A stretch of 34,945 nucleotides of DNA from Candidatus Woesearchaeota archaeon. Lineage in GTDB: Archaea > Nanobdellota > Nanobdellia > Pacearchaeales > GW2011-AR1. The position numbers and the translations under genes are program-made. Below, in pieces: positions 4,637-20,637 of the stretch; position 1 is the stretch's first letter; each line of letters opens with the position of its first letter. The notes below the pieces were generated by a model. The model ran no database searches and was not told the origin of the DNA. It saw only the letters and a program-made list of their open reading frames with translations. The stretch is from assembly GCA_964600565.1 (NCBI GenBank), contig CAZRJS010000007.1, positions 1 to 34,945 on the forward strand. Direction: 5' to 3'.

Positions 4637-5569
4637 TCATTTATTTTCTAAACTTATTTTATTGTTTTTTTTATTTAATTCTTTTTCTTTTAAATCAATT
4701 AAAATTCCCAATTTTTTTAAGTTTCTTTTATTAACCAAGATGTTTTTTAAGATAATTGTCCTTTCATAACCTACCTCTAAAGTTTCAATATCAAAATCTT
4801 TTACAAATTCTTCATCTGCATAAATTGATAATTTTCCAGGTTTTGATTTTTTCAAACCATTATTTTTGATTGTTGTGTTTATATCAAGGTATCTTGAATG
4901 GATAAATGCTGTAGCATTTTTAATTGATAAATCTGGAAGACTTTCATAAGAATAAAGTTCATTTATTAAATCAGGGATATCTTTTCCGATATTTTGACTG
5001 CATTTAGTTATACTATACATTATGCTTTCTGAATTTTCTGAATGTTTAAAACCAAGAGCATGAAGTAGCTCGTGAATTGCAACATTAGGATTAGGGCATC
5101 TTGAGTTTTCTATTAAAAGAACTTTTCCTCTTATTATAACATTAAAGTTGTCTGTTTGAGTTATATTAACTGGTCCTCCTTCTCCTGCAATAAAAAGATC
5201 TCCTTCAATTTTCATCTTTTCATCACAGCTAATTTCTATTTCAGCATTGTTTTCAACTGGGTAAAAATTTAGTATAGTTTTTTCTTCTATTATCTCAAAA
5301 GCTTTTTTCATATCTTTTTGTTTTTTAAGAGTGCAATCTAAAATTTTATATGATATACTTGAATCAGGATATCTCATTTTTTCATAAAATTGCATATCTT
5401 TAAGTTCTGTATTATTAAGACTAAAATTATTATTTATTTCTCCAGTTTTAAATTCAAAGGTTCTAAATGGAATTAGCCAGTAGACTCCAAGTAAAAATAA
5501 AACTAAGAGAAAAAATAAAAAACTTAAAATAATCCTTAAAATTTTTCTTTTTTCTTCTTGTTCTTCCAT
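4637..5569 (-). CDS. Membrane-anchored metzincin-type zinc metalloprotease
   Basis: 310 aa with an N-terminal TM anchor (ILRIILSFLFFLLVLFLLGVYWLI). Full HEXXHXXGXXH signature (HELLHALGFKH) followed by a Met-turn candidate (SIMY). Confidence 0.7.
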   Translation of the reverse strand: MEEQEEKRKILRIILSFLFFLLVLFLLGVYWLIPFRTFEFKTGEINNNFSLNNTELKDMQFYEKMRYPDSSISYKILDCTLKKQKDMKKAFEIIEEKTILNFYPVENNAEIEISCDEKMKIEGDLFIAGEGGPVNITQTDNFNVIIRGKVLLIENSRCPNPNVAIHELLHALGFKHSENSESIMYSITKCSQNIGKDIPDLINELYSYESLPDLSIKNATAFIHSRYLDINTTIKNNGLKKSKPGKLSIYADEEFVKDFDIETLEVGYERTIILKNILVNKRNLKKLGILIDLKEKELNKKNNKISLENK

Positions 5570-6137: not shown

Positions 6138-6157
6138 TCTAATTTAATTCTAATTAT

Positions 6158-6229
6158 GCCTCGGTAGTATAATGGCCAGTACACAAGCCTGTCGCGCTTG
6201 AGACCCGGGTTCGATTCCCGGTCGAGGCG
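6158..6229 (+). tRNA. tRNA-Asp (anticodon GTC), 72 nt, no encoded CCA, no intron
   Basis: Hand-folded. Acceptor gcctcgg/tcgaggc (7 bp, terminal G-U). D-arm gtat-aatggcca-gtac. Anticodon arm caagc-ctGTCgc-gcttg. Variable loop agac. T-arm ccggg-ttcgatt-cccgg. Discriminator g, followed by tttt. Confidence 0.9.
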
Positions 6230-6322
6230 TTTTGAGCATGCTTGCCCGTGTATTCGGACAAATCATTTTAAGTAAAAGGGGAAAATAGAAAACCGAGAAA
6301 ATTAAATAAAAAAATTTTCTGT

Positions 6323-6494: not shown

Positions 6495-7349
6495 TTATTT
6501 ATTACTAAGATTTCTATTTGTTTTAAAAATTTTTTTCTTAGCTTTTTTATTTGATAAACATTCATATAATCGCATGAAATCTGGGTTTACAAGCTCAGTT
6601 CCTCTTCTTCCAGATAATTCTTTTGGTAGATTGAATAAATCTAATATTCTTTCCTTTCCTAAATAACAAATTTCTCCTCCAATAGAAAGGTAATTTATTA
6701 CACTGTTGGTTAAAGAATCTCCTAATGGTCTCTTCCTTTGTTCCCAGATACTCCTAAAGATATAATCTTCAAATCTTGCTGTTGATTTTTTTCGGGGTTT
6801 TATAGAAATTAATGCTCCATTTACAGAAGGTTCAGGATTAAAACTATTTGAGGGAATTTTCATAAGGTATTCTGTATCAAAAAATGCATTTGTAAGGATA
6901 GCTAATCTGCTAATGGGGGTTGTATCTGGAAGAATTCTTTCTTGATATGATTCAATATTATTAGCCTGTTTTTCTCCAACAAGGAGTGTAGCTGATTTAA
7001 ATCGTTCAGAATAAAGTCTATTAAATAAAGGTTCTGTAATATTAAAAGGGATATTTGATACTATTTTATCAATACCTTTTGGCCATTTTGAAGATAAAGC
7101 ATTTCCCATTACAATCTCTATATTTGAAAATTTATTTTTAATTTCCTGAAGATCATCTTTTAAATGGGAATCTTTTTCTATTACAGTAACTTTTTTTGCA
7201 AATTCAGCTAAATATTTTGTTAAAAAACCTTTTCCAGGACCAATTTCTAATATATGATCTTTAGATTCAACTTCTGCAAAAAAAACCATGTCTTTAGCTA
7301 TATCAGGATTAATTAAAAAATGTTGATTTTTATATATCTTATCTGGCAT
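6495..7349 (-). CDS. rRNA adenine dimethyltransferase family protein (KsgA/Dim1/Erm-like), paralog 1
   Basis: 284 aa. NQHFLINPDI, SAM motif ILEIGPGKGFLT, VTVIEKD, and catalytic IVSNIPFNITEPL (N-[LI]-P-[YF]). Confidence 0.75.
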   Translation of the reverse strand: MPDKIYKNQHFLINPDIAKDMVFFAEVESKDHILEIGPGKGFLTKYLAEFAKKVTVIEKDSHLKDDLQEIKNKFSNIEIVMGNALSSKWPKGIDKIVSNIPFNITEPLFNRLYSERFKSATLLVGEKQANNIESYQERILPDTTPISRLAILTNAFFDTEYLMKIPSNSFNPEPSVNGALISIKPRKKSTARFEDYIFRSIWEQRKRPLGDSLTNSVINYLSIGGEICYLGKERILDLFNLPKELSGRRGTELVNPDFMRLYECLSNKKAKKKIFKTNRNLSNK

Positions 7350-7432
7350 AAAAAAACAAATTTCCCCCCATTTATAAAAGTTACTATTTAATAATAATTA
7401 CATTTAAGTAATTAATTCTTCTTTTAGAAATG

Positions 7433-7444
7433 TTTTTATATAAA
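7433..7444 (+). promoter_or_regulatory. TATA-like box upstream of queD block
   Basis: tttttatataaa lies ~20-28 nt upstream of the queD ATG (7462). This suggests a leaderless or near-leaderless transcript. Confidence 0.3.
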
Positions 7445-7461
7445 TGTTAATTTGAAATTAT

Positions 7462-7806
7462 ATGATAGTGGCAAAAGAGTTTGTATTTGATTCTGCACAT
7501 AAATTAAAATGGCATAAGGGGAAGTGTAAAAATCTTCATGGTCATACATACAAATTACAAATTTTAGTTGAAGGTAAATTAAACAAACAGGGGATAGTTA
7601 TAGATTTTGGAGATATGAAAAAAATAATTAAGAGAGAAGTTATTGAAAAATTAGATCATAGATATCTAAATGAAATTATAAAAAATCCTACTGCAGAAAA
7701 CATATCTATATGGATTTGGGAAGAATTAAAAGATAAGATTAAAGATCTTAAAGAGATAAGATTGTGGGAAACTCCAACTTCATTTGCAATATATAATGGA
7801 AAATAA
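7462..7806 (+). CDS. queD: 6-carboxy-5,6,7,8-tetrahydropterin synthase (PTPS family)
   Basis: 114 aa. FDSAHKL...KCKNLHGHTYKL is the Cys-x3-HGH catalytic/zinc signature of QueD. Confidence 0.9.
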   Translation: MIVAKEFVFDSAHKLKWHKGKCKNLHGHTYKLQILVEGKLNKQGIVIDFGDMKKIIKREVIEKLDHRYLNEIIKNPTAENISIWIWEELKDKIKDLKEIRLWETPTSFAIYNGK

Positions 7807-8443
7807 AACTCTAAAAATAAATGAAATTTTCACAAGCATACAAGGAGAAGGAATTCAATCAGGATTGCCCACAATTTTTATTAGATTAACTGGATGCAAT
7901 CTTCGATGTAATTGGTGTGATACTAAATATGCTTATAATAAAGGGAGAGATAAAAATCTTATAAATATTTTAAAAGAGATTAAAAAATTTAAAATTAAAA
8001 ATATTTGTATTACCGGAGGAGAACCTTTACTTCAAAAAAATTTATTGTTATTCATTAGATTATTAATTGAAGAAAAATACAAGATTTTAATAGAAACAAA
8101 TGGCTCTTTGGATGTGTCTTTGATTCCAAAAGAGGTTTTAATTTCTTTAGATATAAAATGTCCTTCTTCAAATGAGAGCAAAAAAAATTTGTTATCAAAT
8201 TTAAAATTTTTAAAAAAGAAAGATCAATGCAAATTTGTAATAAATGATTATAAAGATTATTTATATGCAAAAAGGATAATAAAAAAATATAATCTTATTA
8301 AAAAAATAAATATTTTTTTTACCCCTGTTGGGGGAAAAAACGCTAGAAATTTAGTTGAATGGATTTTAAAAGATAAACTTAATATAAGAATCGGATTACA
8401 AATCCATAAGATAATTTGGGGCGATAAAAAAAGGGGTGTATGA
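7784..8443 (+). CDS. queE: 7-carboxy-7-deazaguanine synthase (radical SAM)
   Basis: EIFTSIQGEGIQSGLPTIFIRLTGCNLRCNWCDTKY is the QueE-type CX3CX2C cluster with a SIQGEG motif. The start may be Met5 (7796). It overlaps the queD stop. Confidence 0.9.
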   Translation: MQYIMENKTLKINEIFTSIQGEGIQSGLPTIFIRLTGCNLRCNWCDTKYAYNKGRDKNLINILKEIKKFKIKNICITGGEPLLQKNLLLFIRLLIEEKYKILIETNGSLDVSLIPKEVLISLDIKCPSSNESKKNLLSNLKFLKKKDQCKFVINDYKDYLYAKRIIKKYNLIKKINIFFTPVGGKNARNLVEWILKDKLNIRIGLQIHKIIWGDKKRGV

Positions 8444-9216
8444 TGAAAGATATTCAAAATCAAAAAGAATTTAGGGGGATTAGACTAAATGAAGTTGGGA
8501 TTAAACATATAAAGTTGCCTGTAAGAATTTTAGATAAAGGTAAAAAAGTTCAACATACTATTGCAGAATTTCATCTTGTTGTTTCATTAGATAAAAATAA
8601 AAGAGGAACTCATATGAGTAGATTTGTTGAAATTTTAGATGAATATATTAAAAAAGATTTAAATTTAAAAGTATTAGGAGAAATTGTTTCTGAAATGAAA
8701 AAAAGATTAGAAGCAATTGATTCTAAAATTATTATGAAATTCCCCTATTTTAAACGAAAAATGTCTCCCATATCAAGGAAAGAATCGATTTTAAATTACG
8801 AATGTTGTTTCACTTGTACTGGAAAAAATTTTGAAGATAAGATTATTGAGGTAAATGTTCCAATAACTACTTTATGTCCTTGTAGTAAAGAAATAAGTAG
8901 ATTTGGAGCCCATAATCAGAGAGGTTTTGCTAGGGTGAGAATTATTTCTTCAAAAAATATTTGGATAGAAGATATAATTAATCTTGTAGAAAAAGAAGCA
9001 AGTTGTGAGATATTTCCTTTATTGAAGAGGGTTGATGAAAAATATGTGACAGAAAAAGCGTATATGAATCCAAAATTTGTTGAAGATGTTGTAAGAGATG
9101 TTGTAAAGAAGTTGAAAAAAAATAAATCGATAATAAGTTATGAAATTGGATTATTAAACAACGAAAGTATTCACCTCCATGATGCTTATGCTTCAGTTTC
9201 AGGAGAAGTAAAATGA
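8440..9216 (+). CDS. folE2: GTP cyclohydrolase IB (FolE2/MptA family)
   Basis: 258 aa. GTHMSRF, TLCPCSKEIS and GAHNQRG motifs are typical of FolE2/MptA. 4-nt ATGA overlap with queE. Confidence 0.85.
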   Translation: MMKDIQNQKEFRGIRLNEVGIKHIKLPVRILDKGKKVQHTIAEFHLVVSLDKNKRGTHMSRFVEILDEYIKKDLNLKVLGEIVSEMKKRLEAIDSKIIMKFPYFKRKMSPISRKESILNYECCFTCTGKNFEDKIIEVNVPITTLCPCSKEISRFGAHNQRGFARVRIISSKNIWIEDIINLVEKEASCEIFPLLKRVDEKYVTEKAYMNPKFVEDVVRDVVKKLKKNKSIISYEIGLLNNESIHLHDAYASVSGEVK

Positions 9217-10892
9217 AGTATGTTTTAGGTGTAAATGCAGGATTAGAAAGAACCCATGATTCTTCAGCATGTTTATTCAGAAAGGGTAAGTTAATTGCAT
9301 TTGCTGAGGAAGAAAGATTTATAAGAAAAAAACATGCTTATAATCTTCTGCCTCATAATGCAATCAGATTTTGTTTGAATGAAGGAAAAATTGATGTTAA
9401 TGAAATAGAAAAGATAGCAGTTTCATGGGATTTTCCTAAATTTTATAGTCAGATTGGTAAAAAATTTCCTTCAAAAAATAATTTTAAAAAAAAATTATTC
9501 CCAAAAAAATATTATAAAAAGGTTAGTGCAGAAATTGTTTATGTGAATCATCACTTAGCACATGCTTCAAGTGCTTTTAGGTGTTCTGGATTTAATAAAT
9601 CTGCTGTTTTGATAATAGATGGTCAGGGAGAAGATTTTTCTACTAGTATTTGGGTTGGAGAAGGAAAGAAAATAAAATTTGTAAAAGGTTTCGATATATT
9701 TCATTCAATAGGCTATTTATATGAAGCTGCTAGTAAATATCTTGGTTTTAGATTAGACCAATCTGGAAAAACAATGGGTCTTTCTGCATATGGAAAGAAA
9801 AAATATGATTTTGAAGATTTGATCAAATTTATTCCTGAAGGTTATATATTGAATATTAAAGAAAAACTTTATCAAGAAATTGACTTTCAAAAGATTGTAT
9901 CTGATTCTTTTATTAAATACTTTGAAAAAAAAATTGGCCCAAAAAATAAAAGAATTTATCTATGGGATGAAAGAGATAGTATTATAGATAATAAAGTTTA
10001 TCTTAATAGAGAAGATGAAAATTTTGCTGCTTCTATTCAAGAGATAATTAATAGATTATTTATTCATCTTTCAAAAATTGCATTAAAATTAACAGGCACG
10101 TCAAAATTGTGTATTGCTGGAGGAGTTGGTTTGAATTGTGTAGGAAATGGCAAAATATTAGAAGAAAATATTTGTGATGAACTTTATGTACAACCTATAG
10201 CAAATGATGCTGGGACAAGTATTGGGGCAGCAATGGAGATTTTATCTAATGAAGGAGAAGATATTAATTTTAAAATGGATGACGTATACTATGGTCCAAA
10301 TTTCTCAAATAAAGAAATAGAAAAAATAATTGAAAAGAATAAATTAAATTATGAATACCTTAATAATCCTTCAAAGACTGTGGCCAAAATGATTTATGAG
10401 GGAAAAATTATAGGTTGGTTTCAGGGAAAAATGGAAGGTGGTCCTCGAGCATTAGGTAATCGGAGTATTCTAGCTGATCCAACTAACCCTAAAATAAAGG
10501 ATTTTGTTAATGAAGTAAAATTTAGAGAAAAATGGAGGCCACTTTGTCCAAGCATAATTGAAGAAGTAAAAGAAAAGTATCTTGAATTTCCTTATGATTC
10601 CCCGTTTATGACAATTAATTTTAAGATAAAAAAAGATAAGATAGAAAAAATTCCTTCAGCAGTTCATATTGATGGTACCGCAAGGGTACAGACAGTTAGT
10701 AAAAAAACCAATGCCCTCTATTGGGATTTAATAAGTGAGTTTGGAAAATTATCTGGAGAACAAGTTATCCTAAATACTTCAATGAATTCTAAAGGAGAAC
10801 CAATTGTATGTAGTCCTAATGATGCTATAAAGAATTTTTATACTTCTCAAATGGATGCATTGGTAATGGGTAATTATCTTATTGAAAAATGA
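9213..10892 (+). CDS. NodU/CmcH/TobZ-family carbamoyltransferase
   Basis: 559 aa. N-terminal LGVNAGLERTHDSSACLF and VNHHLAHASSAF (ASKHA/Kae1-like metal site), plus a C-terminal GPRALGNRSILADP motif. 4-nt overlap with folE2. Confidence 0.85.
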   Translation: MKYVLGVNAGLERTHDSSACLFRKGKLIAFAEEERFIRKKHAYNLLPHNAIRFCLNEGKIDVNEIEKIAVSWDFPKFYSQIGKKFPSKNNFKKKLFPKKYYKKVSAEIVYVNHHLAHASSAFRCSGFNKSAVLIIDGQGEDFSTSIWVGEGKKIKFVKGFDIFHSIGYLYEAASKYLGFRLDQSGKTMGLSAYGKKKYDFEDLIKFIPEGYILNIKEKLYQEIDFQKIVSDSFIKYFEKKIGPKNKRIYLWDERDSIIDNKVYLNREDENFAASIQEIINRLFIHLSKIALKLTGTSKLCIAGGVGLNCVGNGKILEENICDELYVQPIANDAGTSIGAAMEILSNEGEDINFKMDDVYYGPNFSNKEIEKIIEKNKLNYEYLNNPSKTVAKMIYEGKIIGWFQGKMEGGPRALGNRSILADPTNPKIKDFVNEVKFREKWRPLCPSIIEEVKEKYLEFPYDSPFMTINFKIKKDKIEKIPSAVHIDGTARVQTVSKKTNALYWDLISEFGKLSGEQVILNTSMNSKGEPIVCSPNDAIKNFYTSQMDALVMGNYLIEK

Positions 10893-11674
10893 AATTAACA
10901 ATATTAATTCCAGTATCAGATGATATAAGAATAAAAAGATGTATTGAAAGCATTGACGAAGATGTAGAAATTATTATTATTTTTAATTTTCCTTCAAAAG
11001 AAGTAAAAACAATAATAAAAAATTTATCAGAAAAATATAATCTTTTAACTACAGAAATAAATGAAAGAAATCTTGCAAAAGCATATAATCTTGGAACAGT
11101 TATGGCATTAAATAATAATATTCTGCTTATGGATTCTGACTGTATTTTTGAAAAAAATACAATTAAGAAATTACAAAAAGGTATGGATAAAAATTTTTTA
11201 TCAAAAGGGAGAGTTATTTATCAAACTTCTGGATTTATTAGTAGAATAATTGCGGGACTAAGAAATTACATTACTGTTGATAGAATTTCTGCGTTTAGTC
11301 CTCCTTTAATATTCAGCAAAAAAATTAAAAAGAAAATAAAAGGATATTATTTTTATGAAAAGTTATGCTGGATAGAAGATGCTGAATTTAATGAACGTGT
11401 TCAAAATGCCAAAGTTAAAATTTCTTATGATTCTTCTGCAGTTATTTATCATGATAAACTTACATTAAAAGAAGATTTAAGGAGTTCATATAGATATGGT
11501 ACTGGAAGAGCAATTGCAGATAAAGAAAAATTATTTAAAAATGAAATAAGGAGGGGTAATTCTAAGGACTTCCTTAATATTTTTAAAAAGAAGGGTTTTC
11601 TAATAGCTAGTTATTCTTTAGTTTGGAATATATTCTTTAGATTTGGATATAAAAAAGAAATGAAAAATAATTAA
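10889..11674 (+). CDS. Family 2 glycosyltransferase (GT-A fold)
   Basis: 261 aa. LTILIPVSDD start, NLAKAYNLGTVMALNNNILLMDSDC (DxD-type). 4-nt overlap with the carbamoyltransferase gene. Its stop shares TTAA with the stop of the convergent queC. Confidence 0.7.
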   Translation: MKLTILIPVSDDIRIKRCIESIDEDVEIIIIFNFPSKEVKTIIKNLSEKYNLLTTEINERNLAKAYNLGTVMALNNNILLMDSDCIFEKNTIKKLQKGMDKNFLSKGRVIYQTSGFISRIIAGLRNYITVDRISAFSPPLIFSKKIKKKIKGYYFYEKLCWIEDAEFNERVQNAKVKISYDSSAVIYHDKLTLKEDLRSSYRYGTGRAIADKEKLFKNEIRRGNSKDFLNIFKKKGFLIASYSLVWNIFFRFGYKKEMKNN

Positions 11675-12315
11675 TTTAAATATTCTGTTCTGTCAATCTT
11701 TCCCGCTTTTTTAAATGCCGCTTTACGTTCTTTACAACTTCTGCATTTACCACATTGTTTTTTAAAATTTTTATAGCAACTCCAAGAATGATATAAAGGG
11801 AATTCCGAATTAATTTTAATCATTTGGTATTTATTTTTATTTACAAATGGTTGTTTTAATTTTATTTTGTCATAAGAACTGTATTTTAATACTTTGTTAA
11901 AAAGATTTCCAAATTTAAAATTATTATCTGGAAAAGAGTCTTCTTTAGTACTACCTAACCAGACTTCACTAATCTTATAATTTACTCCAAATGAAGAAGC
12001 TAAGCTTAGAAATAGAAGATTTCTTAATGGAACCCATTCTTTTTTCTTATTTTTTGATTTTCCTTGCATAAAAGAATTAGTGAATCCTAGATTAATTTTT
12101 CTATTTATTAAAGTTATTCTTATATCCTTAGATTTTTTCTTATTTTCTTTGATGAATTTTTTAAGTGCTTCTAATTCTTTTTTAAAATTTTTTTGACCAT
12201 AATTAAAAAAAATAAGAACGGGTTCTCTCTTTTTTAATATAGCTTTAGATATTAAACATACTGAATCTAATCCCCCTGAAGTTAAAATTAATACTTTCTC
12301 AGGCTTTCTTTTCAT
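11671..12315 (-). CDS. queC: 7-cyano-7-deazaguanine synthase-like PP-loop ATPase (QueC paralog 1)
   Basis: 214 aa. PP-loop LILTSGGLDS, NYGQKN, VPLRNLLFLSLA, and the C-terminal four-Cys zinc cluster SCYKNFKKQCGKCRSCKERK. Confidence 0.8.
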   Translation of the reverse strand: MKRKPEKVLILTSGGLDSVCLISKAILKKREPVLIFFNYGQKNFKKELEALKKFIKENKKKSKDIRITLINRKINLGFTNSFMQGKSKNKKKEWVPLRNLLFLSLASSFGVNYKISEVWLGSTKEDSFPDNNFKFGNLFNKVLKYSSYDKIKLKQPFVNKNKYQMIKINSEFPLYHSWSCYKNFKKQCGKCRSCKERKAAFKKAGKIDRTEYLN

Positions 12316-13045
12316 ATTTTGTGTCTTTTAGGTTTAATCTTTTGAATATTAGCCTTCTTCTAACGCAATGTTGGCATTCTCCACATTGGGGAGAGGTTCC
12401 TTTAAGGCAGTTATAAGTTAGATGTAAGGGAACTTTCAATTTAACTCCTAGTTTAATAACGTCTTCTTTTGTCATTTTTTTATCTTGGAATGGGAACTCT
12501 ACTGAAATCCCATTAATATTGCTAAATTTTGAAATTTCTTTTGCTCCATTACACCAAAAAGAGGTTTCATCTGGAAAAGAAAGATTTTCTTTTAATATTG
12601 GGTCTTTTATAGAATAATGAATTATTGAGAAAGCAACTTTATTGTATCCTTCAGCTTCTGCTCCTGCCATTAATTCAGCTAAAAAATATAGATTTCTTGC
12701 AGGAGTCCATAAAAATTCTGCTAGTTTTCTTTCTCTTTCTAAATCATTAAGATCTTCCGGAGTTGTTTTTGGAAATTTACTTTGTTTTCCAACAATCGTT
12801 CCACTTCGATATACTTTTCCGAATTTTTTCAGTCTTTTCAAGTCTATAATTTCATATGAAAAATTTTTATAATTTTTCTGGATAAATGAAGCAATTCTTT
12901 TAATAGCTTTTAATTCCTGAAACTTAATCTTTTGCCCATAATCAAAGTAAATACCTTTTACAGTATATCCTTTTTTCAAATAATCAACAGCTAGAACTGT
13001 GCTATCAATACCGCCTGTAAAAGTCATTCTTACTTTTTTATCCAT
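12299..13045 (-). CDS. QueC-like PP-loop ATPase, divergent paralog 2
   Basis: 248 aa. MTFTGGIDS, FDYGQK, TPARNLYFL, and C-terminal YNCLKGTSPQCGECQHCVRRR. It carries an extra ~20-aa acidic/basic insert (TTPEDLNDLERERKLAEF) relative to paralog 1. Overlaps both neighbours. Confidence 0.7.
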   Translation of the reverse strand: MDKKVRMTFTGGIDSTVLAVDYLKKGYTVKGIYFDYGQKIKFQELKAIKRIASFIQKNYKNFSYEIIDLKRLKKFGKVYRSGTIVGKQSKFPKTTPEDLNDLERERKLAEFLWTPARNLYFLAELMAGAEAEGYNKVAFSIIHYSIKDPILKENLSFPDETSFWCNGAKEISKFSNINGISVEFPFQDKKMTKEDVIKLGVKLKVPLHLTYNCLKGTSPQCGECQHCVRRRLIFKRLNLKDTKYEKKA

Positions 13046-13656
13046 TTTATGTTAAATACTTCTGCATATCCTCCTGGAATCTCGTTTAAAATACCATAAT
13101 ATTCATTTAAGCCTTTAACAGCTCGATCATATCTAATCTTTTTTATTTGGGACTTATATTCATTTATGAGCTTTAGTTTTTTGTCTAAATATTTGCTAAT
13201 ATTTTGTATAAAATTGTATTTAACTAAGGGGGTCCATATACAATATTCAAAAATTTCTTTTGTTCTTTTACAGGGTTTTCCTAATTTTAAAAAGATTGGT
13301 GTTGAAGACATCCAAATAGCTTCTTTTAGAAGTTCGTTGCAAACCTTGTGATCGTGATCTCTTTCAAGTTCATGAGGGATATAAATTGTTTCAGGATTAA
13401 TTTTTCTTATATGTTTTATTAAATTTCCTAAATTTTTTTTGTTATATTGAAAAGGTTCATTTATTTTGAGAAAAGTATAGCTCTTAATTCTTGCTTTTTT
13501 CTGAACTTTTTTTGATTCTTTTTCTCTTATTTTAGAACCAATGTAACCCATGATTATCACATGCACATCATGACCTTCTTCTATCTTTTTTAGAATTGTT
13601 CCACCACAACCGATAATTTCATCATCTGGATGAGGGGCTATTATTAGGATTTTCAT
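13030..13656 (-). CDS. PIG-L/LmbE-family N-acetylglucosaminyl deacetylase
   Basis: 208 aa. N-terminal ILIIAPHPDDEIIGCGGT is the family signature. A downstream HDHKV fits the zinc site. Confidence 0.8.
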   Translation of the reverse strand: MKILIIAPHPDDEIIGCGGTILKKIEEGHDVHVIIMGYIGSKIREKESKKVQKKARIKSYTFLKINEPFQYNKKNLGNLIKHIRKINPETIYIPHELERDHDHKVCNELLKEAIWMSSTPIFLKLGKPCKRTKEIFEYCIWTPLVKYNFIQNISKYLDKKLKLINEYKSQIKKIRYDRAVKGLNEYYGILNEIPGGYAEVFNIKWIKK

Positions 13657-13766
13657 ATACTTGTAAAAAATAAGATATTAATAAAGATATCTTTTATTAT
13701 CTTTAATGAGTTCATTAAGAAAATATTTATTTCATAAAAAGTTATTTATCCATTAAAATAAGGATA

Positions 13767-13801
13767 ATTAATAAAAAATTTCTTATTAATAAAAATTCCA
13801 A
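13767..13801 (+). repeat. 35-nt direct repeat, copy 2
   Basis: See 5955..5989. It lies 111 nt upstream of the PIG-L start; copy 1 lies 103 nt upstream of the 5852 start. Confidence 0.7.
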
Positions 13802-13901
13802 GAGGAAAATTAAATCATATTCATTTTTTAAGTTTGTGAGTATAAAAAGAGAAATATAAAAAGCAAGTTTAATAAAAGATTAGATTTATTTGCCAAAAAT
13901 C

Positions 13902-14708
13902 TTATTTTTTAATAATTAATTTAATCTTATCATAAATTATTAAAATCATCTTTCCAGAAATATTGCTGACTTTTTTTTCAAGAGTTTTATCATTGAGATG
14001 AAATTCTTTTAATAAGGTTTTTGCCTCATTTTTTGTATAACCTTCATTAACAAAAAAAGAGATAATTGCATTTTTTATTTTTCCTTTTCTTTTGAGAATA
14101 AATTTTATAGATTCATTATATTTATCTCCTGTTTTCATTGTTAATTTTAATAACCAGGAATTTACTCTTGGGGGTGGTGAAAAAGAAGATTTTTTCACTT
14201 TTTCTATAATTTTTATATCATAAAAGAGATTAGCAATTATGCCAGATTTAGTTGAATTATCAATTAACAGATTTTTAAAATTTTCTCCAATAATAAAAAC
14301 AATAAAAGGAATATCTGTTATAACTGCCTTAGCAATGATTTTTTCTCCAAGATAATAAGGGATATTTGAAACAATTTTATCATATCCTTCCCAAGAGTAT
14401 TTTGTAGCATCACCATAAATAATCTCTAAATTTTTATATTTATTTTTGATTAATTCCAACTTTTTTTTATATTGTATATCAATCTCAAAACTAAGAACTT
14501 TTTTTGCTTTTTTTGCTAGTTCATTTGTAAGCATACCCTCTCCAGCCCCAATTTCAATAATCTTATCTTTTTTAGACAGGGATGAATTTTCTATTTCCTT
14601 CTTTAAAACCAGTTTATCAACTAAAAAATGTTGCCCTTTTTCTAAATTATTTTTTGAATTTGTTTTGTTCCAAAGAAATATCTTTTTCATATTAATTAAT
14701 ACCCTCAA
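13902..14708 (-). CDS. rRNA adenine dimethyltransferase family protein (KsgA/Erm-like), divergent paralog 2
   Basis: 268 aa. GQHFLVD, IIEIGAGEGMLT, SFEIDIQY, YGDATKY, IVSNIPYYLGEKI. Only distantly similar to paralog 1, judged by eye. Confidence 0.75.
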   Translation of the reverse strand: MRVLINMKKIFLWNKTNSKNNLEKGQHFLVDKLVLKKEIENSSLSKKDKIIEIGAGEGMLTNELAKKAKKVLSFEIDIQYKKKLELIKNKYKNLEIIYGDATKYSWEGYDKIVSNIPYYLGEKIIAKAVITDIPFIVFIIGENFKNLLIDNSTKSGIIANLFYDIKIIEKVKKSSFSPPPRVNSWLLKLTMKTGDKYNESIKFILKRKGKIKNAIISFFVNEGYTKNEAKTLLKEFHLNDKTLEKKVSNISGKMILIIYDKIKLIIKK

Positions 14709-14793: not shown

Positions 14794-14881
14794 TTTGCAA
14801 TATTTTAATGTGTGATAAGTTTTAAGCTTGATTAGAATAATATTTATCCTTCTTTCATAGTTAAAGGTTTTGAACAAAAGG

Positions 14882-14891
14882 TTTTTTATAT
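14882..14891 (+). promoter_or_regulatory. TATA-like box upstream of ABC ATPase gene
   Basis: ttttttatat is centred ~25 nt upstream of the likely start at 14912. Confidence 0.3.
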
Positions 14892-14911
14892 CTAATTTAT
14901 GTTATTATAAA

Positions 14912-15619
14912 ATGAAAAAGAGTGAAATTTTGATAAAGCTAAAAGATGTTGAGAAACATTATCGCATAGGAGAAAAGAATATTGTCAAAGCTGTTGATGG
15001 TATAAGTATATCAATAAAAAAAGGGGATTTTGTCGCTGTAATGGGTCCAAGTGGTTCTGGAAAAAGCACATGCATGAATCTTATTGGAAGTTTAGATGTT
15101 CCAACAAAAGGGACTATACATCTTGGAGGAGAAAATATCTCTTATCTTAGCGAGTCTGATTTAGCAGAATTGAGAGGAATGCAAATTGGTTTTATTTTCC
15201 AGCAGTTTAACCTTATACCTAATTTAACTGTTAAAGAAAATGTAATGTTGCCAATGGATTTTCAAAGAATTTCTGGTAGAGAAAAAGAAGAAATTGCAGA
15301 AGAAATTTTAGAGAAAATAGGATTGGAAGAAAGAATGGATTTTTATCCTAATCAACTTTCTGGAGGTCAACAACAAAGAGTTGCAATTGCAAGAGCTCTG
15401 GCAAATAATCCAGAGGTTATTTTAGCAGATGAACCAACAGGAAATCTTGATACAAAAACAGGGCAAAAAGTTATGGATTTTTTAGAAGAATTAAACAAAG
15501 AAGGAAAAACAATAATTATGGTTACTCATGACCCTAATTTAGCAAATGAACATGCAGATATTGTTTATTGGCTTATAGATGGAAAAGTGCAAAAAATAAC
15601 TGGAAAAAAGAGTAAGTAG
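14912..15619 (+). CDS. MacB/LolD-type ABC transporter ATP-binding protein
   Basis: Walker A GPSGSGKST, signature LSGGQQQRVAIARAL, Walker B ILADEPTGNLD. The ORF opens at 14870, but MKKSEILIKLKDV at 14912 fits family N-termini and the TATA spacing. Confidence 0.85.
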   Translation: MKKSEILIKLKDVEKHYRIGEKNIVKAVDGISISIKKGDFVAVMGPSGSGKSTCMNLIGSLDVPTKGTIHLGGENISYLSESDLAELRGMQIGFIFQQFNLIPNLTVKENVMLPMDFQRISGREKEEIAEEILEKIGLEERMDFYPNQLSGGQQQRVAIARALANNPEVILADEPTGNLDTKTGQKVMDFLEELNKEGKTIIMVTHDPNLANEHADIVYWLIDGKVQKITGKKSK

Positions 15620-16207: not shown

Positions 16208-17722
16208 TTATTTGTTTAGTAAGTCTCTTATATTTAGAAGATTCTTTTCTTTTGCATAATTATTTATTATTTCCAAAAATAAATTCCCAAAATCATTTAA
16301 TTTTTTTTGCCCAACACCATTAATTTCTAAAAATTCCTCTTTATTTCTCGGGAGATAAGTTGCCATTTCTCTAAGAGAAACATCTCCAAAAATTATAAAT
16401 GGCGGTATATTTTTTTCATTAGCAATTTTTTTTCTTAAAATTCGTAATTTTTCAAATAGAATTTTTTCAAAAGGGATATTTTCCACAGCTTTTTTAATAA
16501 TTAGTTTTCTATCTGTAATTTCCTCTTCTATATCTGGAATATTTAAACATATATCACAACCTCTGCAATTATCTTCTAAAAATGATTCTCCAAGATAATT
16601 AAGTATGTTCTTTCTCCTACAAGAATTATTTTCACAATAAATCATCATTTTATTTAATTTATCTACTGCATTAGCTTTTGCAATATTGTCTTGAATTTGG
16701 TCAATGAAAAATTCATGTTTTTTTCTATCTCCTCTTGAATAAAATAAAACACAATCACTTTGCATACCATCACGTCCTGCCCGCCCAATTTCTTGATAAT
16801 ATCCTTCAATAGACTTTGAAAAGGTGTGGTGAATTACTAACCGAATATCTGGCTTGTCTATTCCCATACCAAAAGCAATTGTGGCAACAATAATATTTAC
16901 TTTATCTTTTAAGAATAACTCCTGATTTTCTTTTCTTATTTGGCTAGGAAGTCCTGCATGATATGGGAGAGCTTTGAATCCTTTCTCTCTCAAATTATTT
17001 GTAATTCTTTCAGAGTCTTTGCGTGAAAAACAATAAATAATCACAGACTCATTATTATATTTTTTAATTAGATTTATAATTTTATTAATAGTATTCTTTT
17101 TTTTCATAACAATTAAATTAAGATTTTTTCTATCAAAACTTGAAACAAAAATTTTTGAATTTGTTAGGGATAATTGCTTTAAAATATCTTCTCTTACTTT
17201 TAATGTAGCAGTTGCTGTCAAGGCAATTATTGGAACACCTGGAAAAAGAATTTTTAAAAATTTTAAGTTAAGGTATTCCTTTCGAAAATCATGCCCCCAT
17301 TCAGAAATACAATGTGCTTCATCTATTACAATTAAACTTATTTGAGATATCATTAAAAATATCCTGAAATTTTCAATTGCCAATCTTTCAGGAGAGATAT
17401 AAAGCATTTTAATTTTTTTATTTTGGATTTTTTCTTTTATCTCTTCAATTTTATTAAATGAAAGAGAAGAATTAATATATTCTGCAGCAACTCCGTTTGA
17501 TTTTAGGTTATCAACTTGGTCTTTCATAAGAGAAATTAAAGGAGAAATTACAATTGTAAGCCCTTCTAATTTAAGTGCAGGAATTTGATAACAAATAGAC
17601 TTTCCTCCTCCTGTAGGCATAAGAACAAAAGTGTCTTTTTTTTGAAGAACATTTTCAATAATTTCTTGTTGCATTGGTCTGAATTTATCATAACCAAAAT
17701 ATTTTTTTAATAGTGATTCCAT
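16208..17722 (-). CDS. recQ: ATP-dependent DNA helicase RecQ (short form with RQC Zn site and HRDC)
   Basis: 504 aa. FGYDKFRPMQQEII, Walker A MPTGGGKS, DEAH box VIDEAHCISEWGHDFR, Cys cluster CRRK...CRGCDIC, and a C-terminal HRDC-like segment. Confidence 0.9.
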   Translation of the reverse strand: MESLLKKYFGYDKFRPMQQEIIENVLQKKDTFVLMPTGGGKSICYQIPALKLEGLTIVISPLISLMKDQVDNLKSNGVAAEYINSSLSFNKIEEIKEKIQNKKIKMLYISPERLAIENFRIFLMISQISLIVIDEAHCISEWGHDFRKEYLNLKFLKILFPGVPIIALTATATLKVREDILKQLSLTNSKIFVSSFDRKNLNLIVMKKKNTINKIINLIKKYNNESVIIYCFSRKDSERITNNLREKGFKALPYHAGLPSQIRKENQELFLKDKVNIIVATIAFGMGIDKPDIRLVIHHTFSKSIEGYYQEIGRAGRDGMQSDCVLFYSRGDRKKHEFFIDQIQDNIAKANAVDKLNKMMIYCENNSCRRKNILNYLGESFLEDNCRGCDICLNIPDIEEEITDRKLIIKKAVENIPFEKILFEKLRILRKKIANEKNIPPFIIFGDVSLREMATYLPRNKEEFLEINGVGQKKLNDFGNLFLEIINNYAKEKNLLNIRDLLNK

Positions 17723-17976: not shown

Positions 17977-18849
17977 ATGTTTAGACACATTCCAGTTTTA
18001 CCAGAAGAAGTTTTAGAAAATTTTAGAAGTTTAAAAAAAGGAGAAATAATAATAGATGGAACAATTGGGAAAGGGGGGCATTCTAAACTTCTTTTAGAGG
18101 AAGGTTTTGAAGTTATTGGTATAGATAGAGATAAAGAATCAATAGAAGAGGCAGAAAAGAATTTACAAAATTTTAATATAAAAATTGTAAATGATAATTT
18201 TTCACAAATTAAGCAGGTTTTATCAAAATTAGGAATAAAAAAGGTTGGGGGGATTTTATTAGATTTGGGGGTTTCAACATATCAATTAGAAAAAGCAGAA
18301 AGAGGATTTGGTTTTGTAGGGGAATTGGATATGAGAATGAACCAGGACCAAAAATTAACAGCCAAAGAAGTTGTTAATGAATATTCAGAAAAGAAACTTG
18401 CAGATGTTTTGTATAAAAATGGAGAGAGGGTTAATGCAAGAAAAATTGCAAAAAGAATTGTAGATTATAGACAGAAAAGAAAGATTGAAACTGGTGGACA
18501 GCTTCTTAAATTAATAAAATACAGCCTTGATGAAAAATATAGAAAATCTAGAAAACATCACTGGGCAACTCCCACTTTTAGAGCATTAAGGATAGAAGTA
18601 AATAAAGATTATGAAAATTTAGAAAAATTTTTTGGGGTTTTTAGTAATTGTTTGAAAAAAAAGGGAATTTTGCAAATTATAACTTTTCATTCAATCGAAG
18701 AAAAAATTGTAAGGAAAAAATTAAGAGAATTAAAACAAAAGAAGGTTATAAAATTAATAACGAAAAGACCTTTTGAAGCAACTTTAAAAGAAATAGCAAA
18801 GAATCCAAAATCAAAAAGAGCAAAACTATGGGTTGCTGAACTGAGATAA
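17977..18849 (+). CDS. rsmH: 16S rRNA (cytosine-N4) methyltransferase RsmH/MraW
   Basis: 290 aa. HIPVLPEEVLE, DGTIGKGGHS, LLDLGVSTYQLEKAERGFGF, LDMRMNQ, FRALRIEVNKDYENL, ITFHSIEEKIV. Confidence 0.85.
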   Translation: MFRHIPVLPEEVLENFRSLKKGEIIIDGTIGKGGHSKLLLEEGFEVIGIDRDKESIEEAEKNLQNFNIKIVNDNFSQIKQVLSKLGIKKVGGILLDLGVSTYQLEKAERGFGFVGELDMRMNQDQKLTAKEVVNEYSEKKLADVLYKNGERVNARKIAKRIVDYRQKRKIETGGQLLKLIKYSLDEKYRKSRKHHWATPTFRALRIEVNKDYENLEKFFGVFSNCLKKKGILQIITFHSIEEKIVRKKLRELKQKKVIKLITKRPFEATLKEIAKNPKSKRAKLWVAELR

Positions 18850-19425: not shown

Positions 19426-20637
19426 ATGGTAAATTATTTTTCATTTGCATTTAAAAACTTGAAAAAAAGAGGAATTAGGAGTTGGCTAACTCTTCTAGGA
19501 ATTTTTATTGGGATTGTTGCAGTTATTTCTTTAATCACACTTGGAAATGGACTAAAAGAGGCTGTTAATTCTCAGTTTGGTGTTGAATCAACACAAATTA
19601 TAAATATTCAAGCAGGGGGTTTAAATTATGGTGCTCCAGGTTCAACAGTTGTAAATCCTTTAACAAAAGAGGATACAAAAGCTATTCAGAGATTAAGCAC
19701 TATAGAATATGCAGTCCCGAGAAATATTAGATTTGGGTCAATGGAATACAATGATAAAATTGAATTTGGATATGCAGTTAGTATTATTGAGGGTTATGAA
19801 AAAGAAAGTTATGAAATGATGGATTTAAAAGCTGAAAAAGGCAGATTGCTAAGTTCAGGAGATTTAGGAAAAGTTATTTTGGGAAATACTCTCTCAAATG
19901 GAAATAAAAATGGTTTTGATAAGGATATTGATGTTGGAAAAAAGATTCTTATAGAGGGTGAGAAATTTACAGTTGTAGGGATTATGGAAAAAAAAGGCAG
20001 TTTTATGATAGATGGAATTGTTTTAATGTATGACCAAGATTTAGAAGATTTAATCGGTTATGGCGATGATGTTGATATAATTGGAGCCAAAGTCAAAGAC
20101 AGTAATTTAATGGATAGGGCAAAAGAAGATATTGAAAAATTATTAAGAAATAGAAGAGGTGTTAAAAAAGGTGAAGAAGATTTTAAAGTATCAACTCCAG
20201 ATTCTTTGTTAAGTCAGGTTAATAGTGTGTTAAATGCTATCCAGATATTTATTGTGCTTATTGCATCTATAGCAATTTTTGTTGGAGCTATTGGAATTGT
20301 TAATACAATGGCAACTTCTGTTGTTGAGAGAAAAAAAGAAATTGGAATTATGAAAGCTATTGGAGCAAAAAACAAACATATATTTATGCAATTTTTTGTT
20401 GAGTCTGGATTGATGGGACTTATTGGAGGTGCTCTTGGAATTATTTTTGGTTTATTAATTGGATTTCTTGGAACATTAGCAATTAATAATTTTGTTGGGG
20501 CAGAAACAACTCCAGATATAAATATCCCTTTAATCTTCTTTGCCTTGCTTGGAAGTTTTATAGTTGGCTCTGTTGCAGGAATTATTCCGGCAATGAAAGC
20601 AGCAAAACAAAATCCCGTGGAGGCATTAAGAGGATGA
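19426..20637 (+). CDS. MacB-like ABC transporter permease (FtsX domain with large extracytoplasmic loop)
   Basis: 403 aa. N-terminal FAFKNLKKRGIRSWLTLLGIFIGI, a ~230-aa periplasmic-type domain, then a C-terminal three-TM FtsX module ending NPVEALR. Confidence 0.85.
   Translation: MVNYFSFAFKNLKKRGIRSWLTLLGIFIGIVAVISLITLGNGLKEAVNSQFGVESTQIINIQAGGLNYGAPGSTVVNPLTKEDTKAIQRLSTIEYAVPRNIRFGSMEYNDKIEFGYAVSIIEGYEKESYEMMDLKAEKGRLLSSGDLGKVILGNTLSNGNKNGFDKDIDVGKKILIEGEKFTVVGIMEKKGSFMIDGIVLMYDQDLEDLIGYGDDVDIIGAKVKDSNLMDRAKEDIEKLLRNRRGVKKGEEDFKVSTPDSLLSQVNSVLNAIQIFIVLIASIAIFVGAIGIVNTMATSVVERKKEIGIMKAIGAKNKHIFMQFFVESGLMGLIGGALGIIFGLLIGFLGTLAINNFVGAETTPDINIPLIFFALLGSFIVGSVAGIIPAMKAAKQNPVEALRG

Follow-up and report, generated by a model that had tools for sequence, protein, structure and literature searches.

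The window analysed here (the whole 34,945-nucleotide stretch of contig CAZRJS010000007.1, from a Candidatus Woesearchaeota archaeon) holds a cluster of ten genes, at 6495-14708, in which genes for 7-deazaguanine synthesis overlap with genes for sugar tailoring and are flanked by two members of the KsgA/Erm methyltransferase (RrnaAD) family. We propose that the cluster builds a small-molecule conjugate, in which a 7-deazaguanine base would be joined to a carbamoylated, de-N-acetylated hexosamine. Taking the whole statement together, including the parts that we infer, we put its probability at roughly 55%. That one conserved pathway joins 7-deazaguanine to an amino-sugar tailoring module is a claim that we make with high confidence, and that the product is a small molecule seems to us fairly likely. 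In kind, it is most likely a specialised-metabolite cluster of the 7-deazapurine class; its enzyme set and its taxonomic range are new, and a KsgA-family gene is embedded in it.

Eight of the genes form two convergent blocks. On the plus strand we find QueD (6-carboxytetrahydropterin synthase, 7462-7806), QueE (radical S-adenosylmethionine (SAM) 7-carboxy-7-deazaguanine synthase, 7784-8443), FolE2 (GTP cyclohydrolase IB, 8440-9216), an O-carbamoyltransferase from a dedicated subfamily of the TobZ/NodU family (CarbT, 9213-10892) and a dedicated family 2 glycosyltransferase of the GT-A type (GT2, 10889-11674). On the minus strand there are a PIG-L/LmbE-family de-N-acetylase of N-acetylglucosamine (GlcNAc) conjugates (13030-13656), the divergent, rare and Cap9-like QueC paralog QueC2 (12299-13045), and QueC1, a short, non-canonical ATP-dependent enzyme of the QueC family (11671-12315). 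Checked base by base, the plus-strand genes share ATGA start/stop overlaps at 8440-8443, 9213-9216 and 10889-10892, and QueD and QueE overlap at 7784-7806 if the TTG start of queE is used, or at 7796-7806 if translation begins at the ATG at 7796. The minus-strand overlaps are 17 nt (12299-12315) and 16 nt (13030-13045) long, and QueC2 is translationally coupled to both PIG-L and QueC1. The convergent stops of GT2 and QueC1 share a TTAA at 11671-11674. In total, seven junctions in a row overlap within the cluster, against two of 29 elsewhere in the window. An earlier note, made from the DNA letters, had described these eight open reading frames (ORFs), their families and their overlaps, the shared TTAA included, and Pfam, NCBIfam and the junction check bear it out. 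It had also set the limits of the system at 7462-13656. The genes in this range are real, but the limits proved too narrow, as the two RrnaAD genes on the minus strand, which we call L-type (6495-7349) and R-type (13902-14708), are an integral part of the cluster. The only spacer at the left edge is a divergent, AT-rich intergenic region of 112 nt between the L-type gene and queD (7350-7461), presumably the promoter region for both.

We then asked how far the ensemble is conserved. In L001, a 154 kb archaeal contig, CarbT is 58% identical and the gene order is conserved throughout, with an RrnaAD on each side; the contig further encodes a radical-SAM/SPASM protein, a methyltransferase and a P-loop protein. 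At a CarbT identity of 44-48%, the same ensemble occurs in Aenigmarchaeota (L005 and L007), in the candidate phyla radiation (CPR; L004, L009, L012, L090 and L091) and in two cultured Firmicutes, Clostridium disporicum (L093) and Metabacillus idriensis (L094; GCA_904423835.1, CAJFZT010000002.1, with the cluster at about 6.5-17.4 kb of the locus). The hosts are ultra-small archaea (DPANN), ultra-small bacteria (CPR, or Patescibacteria) and cultured Firmicutes. The two Aenigmarchaeota loci contain FolE2-QueD-QueE, a methyltransferase, CarbT, PIG-L, GT2, QueC and RrnaAD. L090 (Woesebacteria) and L091 (a complete 802 kb genome) have FolE type I-QueD-QueE-QueC-CarbT-GT2(-PIG-L), followed by RrnaAD, together with BpsA_C and AdoMet_dc. 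The order in L004, which we assign to a bacterium since SmpB is present, is CarbT-GT2-QueC(407 aa)-PIG-L-BpsA_C-Vut_1-RrnaAD, with a gene for AdoMet decarboxylase. L009 (CAYNMC010000016.1) is labelled as a metagenome-assembled genome of Pseudomonadales; its RrnaAD shares 82% identity with the L091 protein and the cluster layout is the same, which points to a probable binning error and a CPR bacterium as the true source of the contig.

To quantify the association, we collected 23 distinct loci of the subfamily, 22 of them informative, and 150 control loci around generic carbamoyltransferases (70 genomic and 80 viral, 2.5 Mb), which were searched with profiles of the cluster proteins. A QueC-family gene is adjacent in 19 of the 22 subfamily loci, and none of the 150 control loci has QueC, PIG-L, RrnaAD, QueD, QueE or FolE within 10 kb. 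This strongly supports the earlier proposal of a single pathway that combines 7-deazaguanine with sugar tailoring. It also effectively refutes chance adjacency, that is, ordinary preQ0 genes for archaeosine that in a compact genome happen to have a surface-glycan locus of no related function as their neighbour. Gene overlaps are indeed common in compact genomes, and one locus (L196) holds the CarbT-GT2-PIG-L trio without que genes. On the other hand, the co-occurrence spans two domains of life despite extensive rearrangement, a swap from FolE2 to FolE type I and replacement of synthesis by a YhhQ-family importer, and the QueCs of the DPANN and CPR clusters are not the canonical ones; we find a coincidence hardly credible. 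A viral origin was rejected as well, since the carbamoyltransferases in IMG/VR are only 28-34% identical and none of the 80 viral loci has the partner genes.

The exceptions among the 22 loci are L196, L010 and L092 from Streptomyces. The earlier note had named homologous clusters without que genes as the observation that would speak for a merely adjacent surface-glycan locus, and this situation is seen only in this small minority. The trio is thus a module that is usually, though not always, locally paired with 7-deazaguanine genes. L092 (GCA_042802155.1, 1-20993) encodes a member of the GT2 subfamily (35% identity) in a cluster that looks uncharacterised and has no que genes. The neighbours of this GT2 are a carbamoyltransferase, a non-ribosomal peptide synthetase (NRPS; A-PCP-C), an acyl-CoA dehydrogenase, a short-chain dehydrogenase/reductase, a nucleoside 2-deoxyribosyltransferase-family gene, a xanthine-dehydrogenase-like gene, two more GT2 genes and the same ATP-binding cassette (ABC) exporter that we see in the Firmicutes (ABC_tran and two ABC2_membrane_6 genes). 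This cluster may be a purine-base counterpart of the same chemistry. In the Firmicutes loci, the exporter genes are accompanied by an RNPP regulator.

The tailoring genes vary between the versions of the cluster. For example, NodS-like methyltransferases occur in L094 and L196. In L090, two adjacent genes with the APH fold (similar to aminoglycoside phosphotransferases and choline kinases) lie between PIG-L and RrnaAD at 12208-13981; these kinases could be of the resistance type or biosynthetic. Just upstream of the 7-deazaguanine cluster in L093 there is a YcaO-ThiF-nitroreductase set with a 56-aa ORF (43-2530), as in clusters for thiazole/oxazole-modified peptides.

Three enzymes would supply 7-carboxy-7-deazaguanine (CDG). 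QueD matches PF01242 with 129 bits and TIGR03367 with 106.9 bits, above the equivalog cut-off of 89.25, and is 68% identical to its L001 orthologue. For QueE (Radical_SAM and Fer4_12 in Pfam), the top five NCBIfam matches are all QueE models; the best one reaches 249.6 bits, which is below the cut-off of 300. The protein carries the radical-SAM Cx3Cx2C motif as CNLRCNWC and is 66% identical to the L001 orthologue, and queE is kept beside queD in at least 15 loci. FolE2 reaches 291 bits with PF02649 and 263.8 with NF010200 (equivalog cut-off 215), while the MptA model gives only 149.7, less than its cut-off of 220. In the CPR and Firmicutes versions FolE2 is swapped for FolE type I. L004 has no folE, queD or queE and carries a gene of the Vut_1 family (PF02592), that is, of the YhhQ family of preQ0/preQ1 importers (PMC5372724). 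Because FolE2, FolE type I and YhhQ-family import are interchangeable, the cluster is tied to 7-deazaguanine itself and not to one supply route.

The QueC-family proteins of the window are not canonical. We aligned them to E. coli QueC and compared them with the experimentally defined canonical signature (PMC13329287). In the E. coli enzyme, R99 is essential, an aromatic residue is required at Y131 (Y131F is partially active) and Y189A is inactive (PMC13329287). QueC1 matches PF06508 with 136 bits and TIGR00364 with 119.7, and QueC2 reaches 99 and 92.5 bits, respectively; both TIGR00364 scores are below the equivalog cut-off of 150.3. The SGGxDS ATP-binding loop is present (SGGLDS in QueC1 and TGGIDS in QueC2, with a conservative S-to-T exchange at the first position), as is VPxRN (VPLRN in QueC1 and TPARN in QueC2, with the RN pair retained), and both proteins have all four cysteines of the zinc-binding C(x)nCxxCxxC motif. 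The YxQxHxxE motif is replaced in both by YGQ(x)5E, with one inserted residue and no histidine, and YPDC by FPDN in QueC1 and FPDE in QueC2, so that the aromatic residue is retained as Phe and the Cys is gone. The equivalent of Tyr189 is present in QueC1 (SCYK) and is Leu in QueC2 (NCLK). The complete preQ0 pathway that had been claimed for the window was thus not established.

The same is seen elsewhere: all QueCs of the DPANN and CPR clusters have a Cap9-type Y/F/W-x-Q-(x)5-E and lack the YPDC cysteine, at 22-29% identity to E. coli QueC. They fall into at least four classes, including two distinct long forms of about 400 aa; in L001, a single QueC-like gene of 402 aa replaces the two genes of the window. 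QueC1 is 46% identical to its L002/L193 orthologue. For QueC2, whose AlphaFold2 (AF2) model shows the QueC fold with two lineage-specific insertions, 5.8 billion cluster representatives contain just one closely related protein, P0183 (57% identity), and this protein sits in L193 in the same PIG-L-QueC2-QueC1 arrangement. The sole sequence match of QueC2 in the PDB is Cap9 (9nto_B, E = 8.5e-11), and Cap9 is also the best PDB match of the long QueCs. Like the roseomycin A enzymes and QatC, Cap9 is one of the QueC homologues that ligate CDG to amines. The Firmicutes clusters, on the other hand, have canonical QueCs (51% identity to E. coli QueC, with all motifs including YxQRHxxE and GYPDC), accompanied by a standalone DUF5591, which is absent from the DPANN and CPR clusters. 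DUF5591 is the catalytic core of ArcS, the synthase that forms archaeosine by addition of an amine to the nitrile of preQ0. This complementary distribution of non-canonical QueC and DUF5591 suggests two routes to an amide- or amidine-type substituent at C7. A small P-loop (AAA_18-like) protein is encoded directly beside the long QueC-family gene in L001 (14623-15195), L004 (10508-11131, where it is divided between an ORF of 87 aa and one of 97 aa) and L101 (5063-5752).

The likeness to Cap9 raises the question whether the cluster could serve in defence against phages in the manner of Cap9 and QatC, with the N-terminus of a protein as the site to which QueC-like enzymes attach carboxy-deazaguanine. 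Apart from the PDB matches of QueC2 and the long QueCs, the Cap9-type QueC model of PADLOC matches at 77-95 bits, the long forms recall the architecture of QatC with their N- and C-terminal extensions, and small P-loop proteins adjoin them. That model is, however, all that PADLOC yields, and we rejected the assignment: CarbT, GT2 and PIG-L have no PADLOC matches, and no CD-NTase, Cap10/TGT, QatA, QatB or QatD was found by PADLOC in the window, L001 and L004 or is annotated in any locus. No motifs specific to QatC were detected, and the QatC model scores weakly; moreover, the clusters make their own CDG and hold sugar-tailoring enzymes that are foreign to known deazaguanylation systems. We consider a defence role very improbable.

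Among the tailoring enzymes, CarbT has the full-length architecture of two domains (Carbam_trans_N with 165 bits and Carbam_trans_C with 222 bits), and the NodU model of NCBIfam matches with 181 bits. Its closest match of known structure is TobZ, with which the profile aligns end to end (positions 1-562, E = 8e-177) and which transfers a carbamoyl group to a sugar hydroxyl of an aminoglycoside. Members of the CarbT subfamily co-occur with GT2, PIG-L, QueC and RrnaAD, and generic carbamoyltransferases never do. The CarbT score alone is not a clean marker of the subfamily, as L097-L105 score 490-540, which overlaps with generic members; GT2 is the sharper one. At E <= 1e-30, the GT2 subfamily takes in 209 of 1.84 billion representatives, or about 200 clusters at 50% identity, and only 61 word-indexed matches, including those in C. 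disporicum, M. idriensis and Streptomyces. PIG-L scores 69.6 bits with PF02585 (threshold 28.2) and 89.9 bits with BshB1; its PDB matches are the LmbE-related 2ixd, an archaeal diacetylchitobiose deacetylase and BshB1, and relatives of this kind act on GlcNAc conjugates. The predicted catalytic motifs hold in GT2 and PIG-L: in GT2, DSDC and EDAEF are intact in the window, and DSDC (D82-S83-D84) and ED are invariant in the subfamily; in PIG-L, the AHPDDE motif (APHPDDEIIGCGG) and DxDH (as H..DxDH) are kept in 7/7 aligned cluster proteins.

The window GT2 matches PF00535 with 42 bits, and its AF2 model (predicted local distance difference test score 95.7) has a GT-A fold, with a Foldseek probability of 1.00 to TarS, TarP, HAS, WrtF and AvpGT. 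The complex of AvpGT with the nucleoside Ara-A is no better match to the model than TarS, TarP or HAS, and a search of the PDB with the GT2 profile is equally uninformative on the acceptor, with a weak match to DPMS (E = 1e-4). The product could, in principle, be a lipid-linked or cell-surface glycoconjugate: GT2 would make a polyprenyl-phosphate- or lipid-linked N-acetylhexosamine (HexNAc), PIG-L would deacetylate it and a QueC-like ligase would amidate it with CDG. A glycosyltransferase followed by PIG-L mirrors the logic of GlcNAc-phosphatidylinositol de-N-acetylation in the synthesis of glycosylphosphatidylinositol and of GlcN-archaetidylinositol, the C-terminal helix of GT2 is conserved, and ABC-2 type transporters also export surface glycans. 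However, the helix is only weakly hydrophobic. Its peak Kyte-Doolittle value is 1.05 in the window protein, for which we rejected a membrane anchor; only 7/46 homologues reach 1.6, and in that of C. disporicum no segment is hydrophobic. Given also the weakness of the DPMS match and the lack of a flippase, oligosaccharyltransferase or polymerase in the clusters, we give this possibility little credence.

Next, we turned to the two flanking RrnaAD genes. The L-type and R-type proteins match Pfam RrnaAD with 132 bits and, at full length, with 123 bits, and both stay below the cut-offs of the specific models (ksgA TIGR00755: 147.8 and 134.1, cut-off 171; Erm-broad: 131 and 121 bits, cut-off 212). 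The SAM motif and N-I-P-F/Y are conserved in both copies, in the L-type as LEIGPGKG and NIPF. Orthologues of the L-type occur in L001, L005 and L007 at 37-46% identity (47% in the comparison of the left copies of the window and L001). Those of the R-type border the cluster in L001 (50%) and are found immediately upstream of CarbT in L002, L003 and L193 (44-49%); an RrnaAD gene has this position in L010 too. A scan of metagenomes anchored on the L-type protein only gave 18 loci, four of which are at most 1.6 kb long; in all of the other 14, cluster genes are adjacent, and in eight of these the RrnaAD gene is a part of the operon itself (BpsA-CarbT-RrnaAD-PIG-L-GT2-QueC), with overlaps on both sides. 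The R-type protein may be the housekeeping Dim1/KsgA or, alternatively, a second paralog that belongs to the cluster. RrnaAD is found only in the DPANN and CPR versions, and the exporter of one ABC_tran and two ABC2_membrane_6 genes only in the Firmicutes and Streptomyces versions. Because the two are mutually exclusive, and because the APH-fold kinases of L090 lie beside RrnaAD, we tentatively favour self-protection by rRNA adenine methylation as the role of these paralogs, at somewhat less than even odds.

Alternatively, the KsgA/Erm-like enzymes could be a part of the same small-molecule pathway and N-methylate an exocyclic amine of the metabolite (the 2-amine of the deazaguanine, an amide or amidine, or the sugar amine) and not rRNA. 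This would fit the translational embedding of RrnaAD between CarbT and PIG-L in the eight metagenome loci, the (N)IPF/Y motif, which is typical of methyltransferases that act on exocyclic amines of bases, and the fact that the Pfam match of the L-type and of the CPR type ends before the C-terminal domain of KsgA; furthermore, a NodS-like methyltransferase is found instead in the Firmicutes locus L094 and in the Woesearchaeota locus L196. L093, however, has neither RrnaAD nor any other SAM methyltransferase, so that N-methylation is not a core step, and L005 and L007 carry a separate methyltransferase in addition to RrnaAD. The TIGR00755 alignment of the L-type is near full length, the basic tail at its end hints at binding of RNA, and we know of no RrnaAD-family enzyme reported to act on a small molecule. 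A biosynthetic methyltransferase is therefore, in our view, unlikely.

The presence of a KsgA/Erm-family RNA methyltransferase as an integral part of the DPANN and CPR clusters could also mean that RNA itself is the substrate, that is, that a glycosylated, carbamoylated 7-deazaguanine is made on rRNA or tRNA and the KsgA-like protein serves in RNA recognition or in a companion methylation. Glycosylated queuosines exist in eukaryotic tRNA, the N-domain of the carbamoyltransferase is Kae1/TsaD-like, and many neighbouring genes are translation genes. Known systems that put 7-deazaguanine into nucleic acids (Dpd, phage DpdA, tRNA TGT/ArcTGT) have a base-exchange enzyme of the TGT superfamily, in the cluster or elsewhere in the genome. 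None is present in the 35 kb window, as the earlier note had stated, and neither TGT nor DpdA is annotated in the nine Pfam-annotated cluster loci (L001, L004, L005, L007, L090, L091, L093, L094 and L196), which show no ArcTGT either. In addition, no tRNA gene recurs near the clusters of seven related loci, RrnaAD is missing from the Firmicutes versions, where an ABC exporter and a quorum-type regulator are present, small molecules or glycoconjugates are the substrates of all of the closest structural relatives, and the tailoring content varies widely, unlike that of a housekeeping RNA modification. We think that RNA hypermodification is rather improbable.

Going back to the small-molecule conjugate, the pathway could proceed as follows. 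From what is known of their families, FolE2, QueD and QueE would convert GTP to CDG, and a QueC-family enzyme would turn its carboxylate into a C7 amide or nitrile. The non-canonical QueCs may form the amide (7-amido-7-deazaguanine or an N-substituted amide) instead of the nitrile or besides it, and QueC2 may ligate CDG to an amine, for example one freed by PIG-L. In the Firmicutes, canonical QueC together with the ArcS-core protein would give an amidine as the equivalent step. GT2 is expected to transfer a nucleotide-activated sugar, probably a HexNAc, as the PIG-L de-N-acetylase is always present; as huimycin and streptothricin suggest, the linkage would most plausibly be an N-glycosidic one to the guanidine-like face of the base. 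PIG-L would then expose the 2-amine of the sugar, and the TobZ-like enzyme would O-carbamoylate a sugar hydroxyl via carbamoyl-AMP. This order, with GT2 acting on the deazaguanine before deacetylation and carbamoyl capping, is plausible. The freed amine may receive lineage-specific decorations by BpsA and AdoMet decarboxylase, methyltransferases or kinases; aminopropylation by BpsA with decarboxylated SAM would take place in CPR and Firmicutes, and decoration by QueC2 in the lineage of the window. Finally, the KsgA/Erm-family methyltransferases would protect the cell's own ribosome by adenine methylation, while the Firmicutes would rely on the ABC exporter. By analogy, the product may resemble streptothricin and huimycin, with self-protection by rRNA methylation; we favour this small-molecule reading because the Firmicutes versions carry an ABC exporter in place of the methyltransferase. 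The likeness of CarbT to TobZ, the relatives of PIG-L that act on GlcNAc conjugates, the variable tailoring genes, the transporter of L196, the APH-fold kinases of L090 and the lack of an annotated TGT or DpdA gene in the nine annotated loci point in the same direction.

Several points weigh against this proposal. Specialised-metabolite clusters are unusual in such reduced genomes. The fold search with the GT2 model returned generic GT-A enzymes only and so does not give the acceptor. The PDB matches of QueC1 are canonical QueCs only, and in a fold search with the QueC2 model Cap9 and B. subtilis QueC are near-equal top matches, so that we discarded the fold as a means of deciding on the function of QueC2. 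The motifs of the DPANN and CPR QueCs may reflect lineage divergence alone, in which case preQ0 could still be made. In L196 (Woesearchaeota, GCA_016930415.1, 8232-16979) the trio has no que genes within 9 kb and no RrnaAD; the order is NodS-like methyltransferase, GT2, PIG-L, radical SAM, DUF3419 (which we take to be a BtaA-like SAM 3-amino-3-carboxypropyl transferase), CarbT, radical SAM and a major facilitator superfamily transporter. In L010 (ATP-grasp-RrnaAD-CarbT), the CarbT-RrnaAD pair stands without que genes within about 9-10 kb. Self-resistance is read from the RrnaAD family and its complementarity with the exporters only; both window RrnaADs are about equally similar to archaeal KsgA structures, so one copy may be the housekeeping enzyme, and the DPANN and CPR loci have no conserved exporter.

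The window is archaeal, with a uS10 of the eukaryotic/archaeal equivalog, the diphthine synthase Dph5 and TrmB as markers. The GC content is about 26% (25.9% in the cluster, 25.8% and 27.2% in its flanks), and the GC content at third codon positions is 0.159 in the cluster as compared with 0.153; we therefore rejected a recent horizontal transfer into the host genome. Upstream of the L-type gene there is tRNA-Asp(GUC) (6157-6230, plus strand). In bacteria and eukaryotes, tRNAs with GUN anticodons bear queuosine; since no tRNA type recurs across the seven related loci, its position next to the cluster is probably a coincidence. Further upstream (4637-5569, minus strand) lies a gene for a predicted secreted or membrane-anchored metallopeptidase, with a matrixin/astacin-like HExxH domain and a CARDB domain. 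On the other side of the cluster, a bacterial-type 16S rRNA m4C1402 methyltransferase, RsmH (17977-18849, plus strand; TIGR00006 280.7 bits, cut-off 154.3), is found in this otherwise archaeal window; counting the two KsgA-family genes, 12 kb of DNA thus contain three genes for methyltransferases of the small-subunit-rRNA type. A complete RecQ helicase (DEAD, Helicase_C, RecQ_Zn_bind and HRDC; 16208-17722, minus strand) and RsmH separate an ABC ATPase gene (14870-15619) from genes for MacB-type permeases (19426-21839); these transporter genes are not kept beside the cluster in L001.

We were not able to find a description of this ensemble in the searchable literature. A 2026 survey of 7-deazapurine biosynthetic gene clusters (BGCs) across about 2 million bacterial genomes mentions no carbamoyltransferase, deacetylase, Patescibacteria or the ensemble, and neither does a 2026 analysis of the PF06508 family by the same leading group mention carbamoyltransferases, deacetylases, Patescibacteria or the ensemble. 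The earlier note had called the combination an undescribed archaeal one; undescribed it appears to be, but archaeal-specific it is not, as CPR and cultured Firmicutes have it too. If our proposal is true, this is one of very few specialised pathways kept by reduced DPANN and CPR genomes, and, since it is retained there, it is probably important for the symbiotic lifestyle. It would also represent a new class of QueC-family chemistry and the first function for a KsgA/Erm-family paralog embedded in a biosynthetic operon. The predicted scaffold, a guanine mimic with a carbamoylated amino sugar, would be new and possibly a translation inhibitor. A bolder and rather doubtful version is that DPANN and CPR, as ultra-small episymbionts, widely retain a dedicated pathway for a ribosome-targeting, streptothricin-like "7-deazaguanine aminoglycoside" with a KsgA-derived self-immunising methyltransferase, as a chemical weapon or a host-manipulation factor, and that the linkage chemistry (QueC-type amide or ArcS-type amidine) was invented twice. 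Because the ensemble occurs in the cultured M. idriensis and C. disporicum, the chemistry is directly testable without cultivation of DPANN or CPR.

How does the cluster compare with known systems? The known clusters for 7-deazapurine natural products are almost all from actinomycetes. Those for huimycin and dapiramicin are similar in that a GTP-to-7-deazaguanine gene set lies beside a glycosyltransferase using UDP-GlcNAc and methyltransferases, with no TGT or DpdA; a 2026 genome-mining preprint uses the absence of these two as its criterion for 7-deazapurine pathways of secondary metabolism. The huimycin type is defined by a PF13439 glycosyltransferase (GT4-type), an O-methyltransferase and a LuxR regulator, and the present cluster falls outside of it, with a PF00535 GT2, non-canonical QueCs and no LuxR regulator. 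Conversely, huimycin clusters have canonical QueC, actinomycete hosts and no PIG-L, carbamoyltransferase or RrnaAD.

The streptothricin pathway has the same enzyme logic: N-glycosylation of a guanidine aglycone with HexNAc, de-N-acetylation, O-carbamoylation and a cationic tail on the freed 2-amine. In this antibiotic, a carbamoylated 2-amino sugar bears the guanidine aglycone at its anomeric carbon, and an N-glycosyltransferase and a deacetylase take part in its synthesis; it inhibits translation, and its carbamate contacts A1196 of 16S rRNA. The parallel that is documented is one of function. The aglycone of streptothricin is streptolidine lactam and not 7-deazaguanine, and its tail is NRPS-made beta-lysine, whereas we suggest an aminopropyl, methyl or QueC-type decoration. 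With the archaeosine pathway, the cluster has in common the FolE2/QueD/QueE/QueC-type genes and, in the Firmicutes versions, DUF5591 as the ArcS core. It differs in that no locus has ArcTGT, full-length ArcS or a PUA domain, that the genes are embedded with sugar-tailoring genes, and that the DPANN and CPR QueCs are non-canonical; furthermore, the bacterial members cannot make archaeosine tRNA.

At the level of single enzymes, CarbT resembles TobZ, the tobramycin/kanamycin 6''-O-carbamoyltransferase, in its full length with both the YrdC-like and the Kae1-like domain, although it belongs to a distinct subfamily defined by gene neighbourhood. The peptidyl-7-deazapurine enzymes of roseomycin A, Cap9 and QatC are ATP-dependent enzymes of the QueC fold that join the CDG carboxylate to an amine without a nitrile, and Cap9 has the Y/FxQ(x)5E variant in common with the DPANN and CPR cluster QueCs. 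The ligase activity that this suggests for the cluster QueCs would operate in another context, as the ATP-grasp and TauD set of the roseomycin clusters and the CD-NTase, Cap10 or Qat partners of the Cap9/QatC systems have no counterpart here. Finally, the tailoring of Nod factors combines the NodC GT2, the NodB deacetylase, the NodS N-methyltransferase, the NodU carbamoyltransferase and N-acylation by NodA. The cluster follows the same logic of GT2, GlcNAc de-N-acetylation, modification of the freed amine and NodU-type O-carbamoylation. NodB, however, is a carbohydrate esterase of family 4 and not a PIG-L enzyme, NodA and a chitin-oligomer synthase architecture are seen only in the Nod system, and where Nod factors carry a fatty-acid acyl group, the deazaguanine carboxylate would be the acyl group here.

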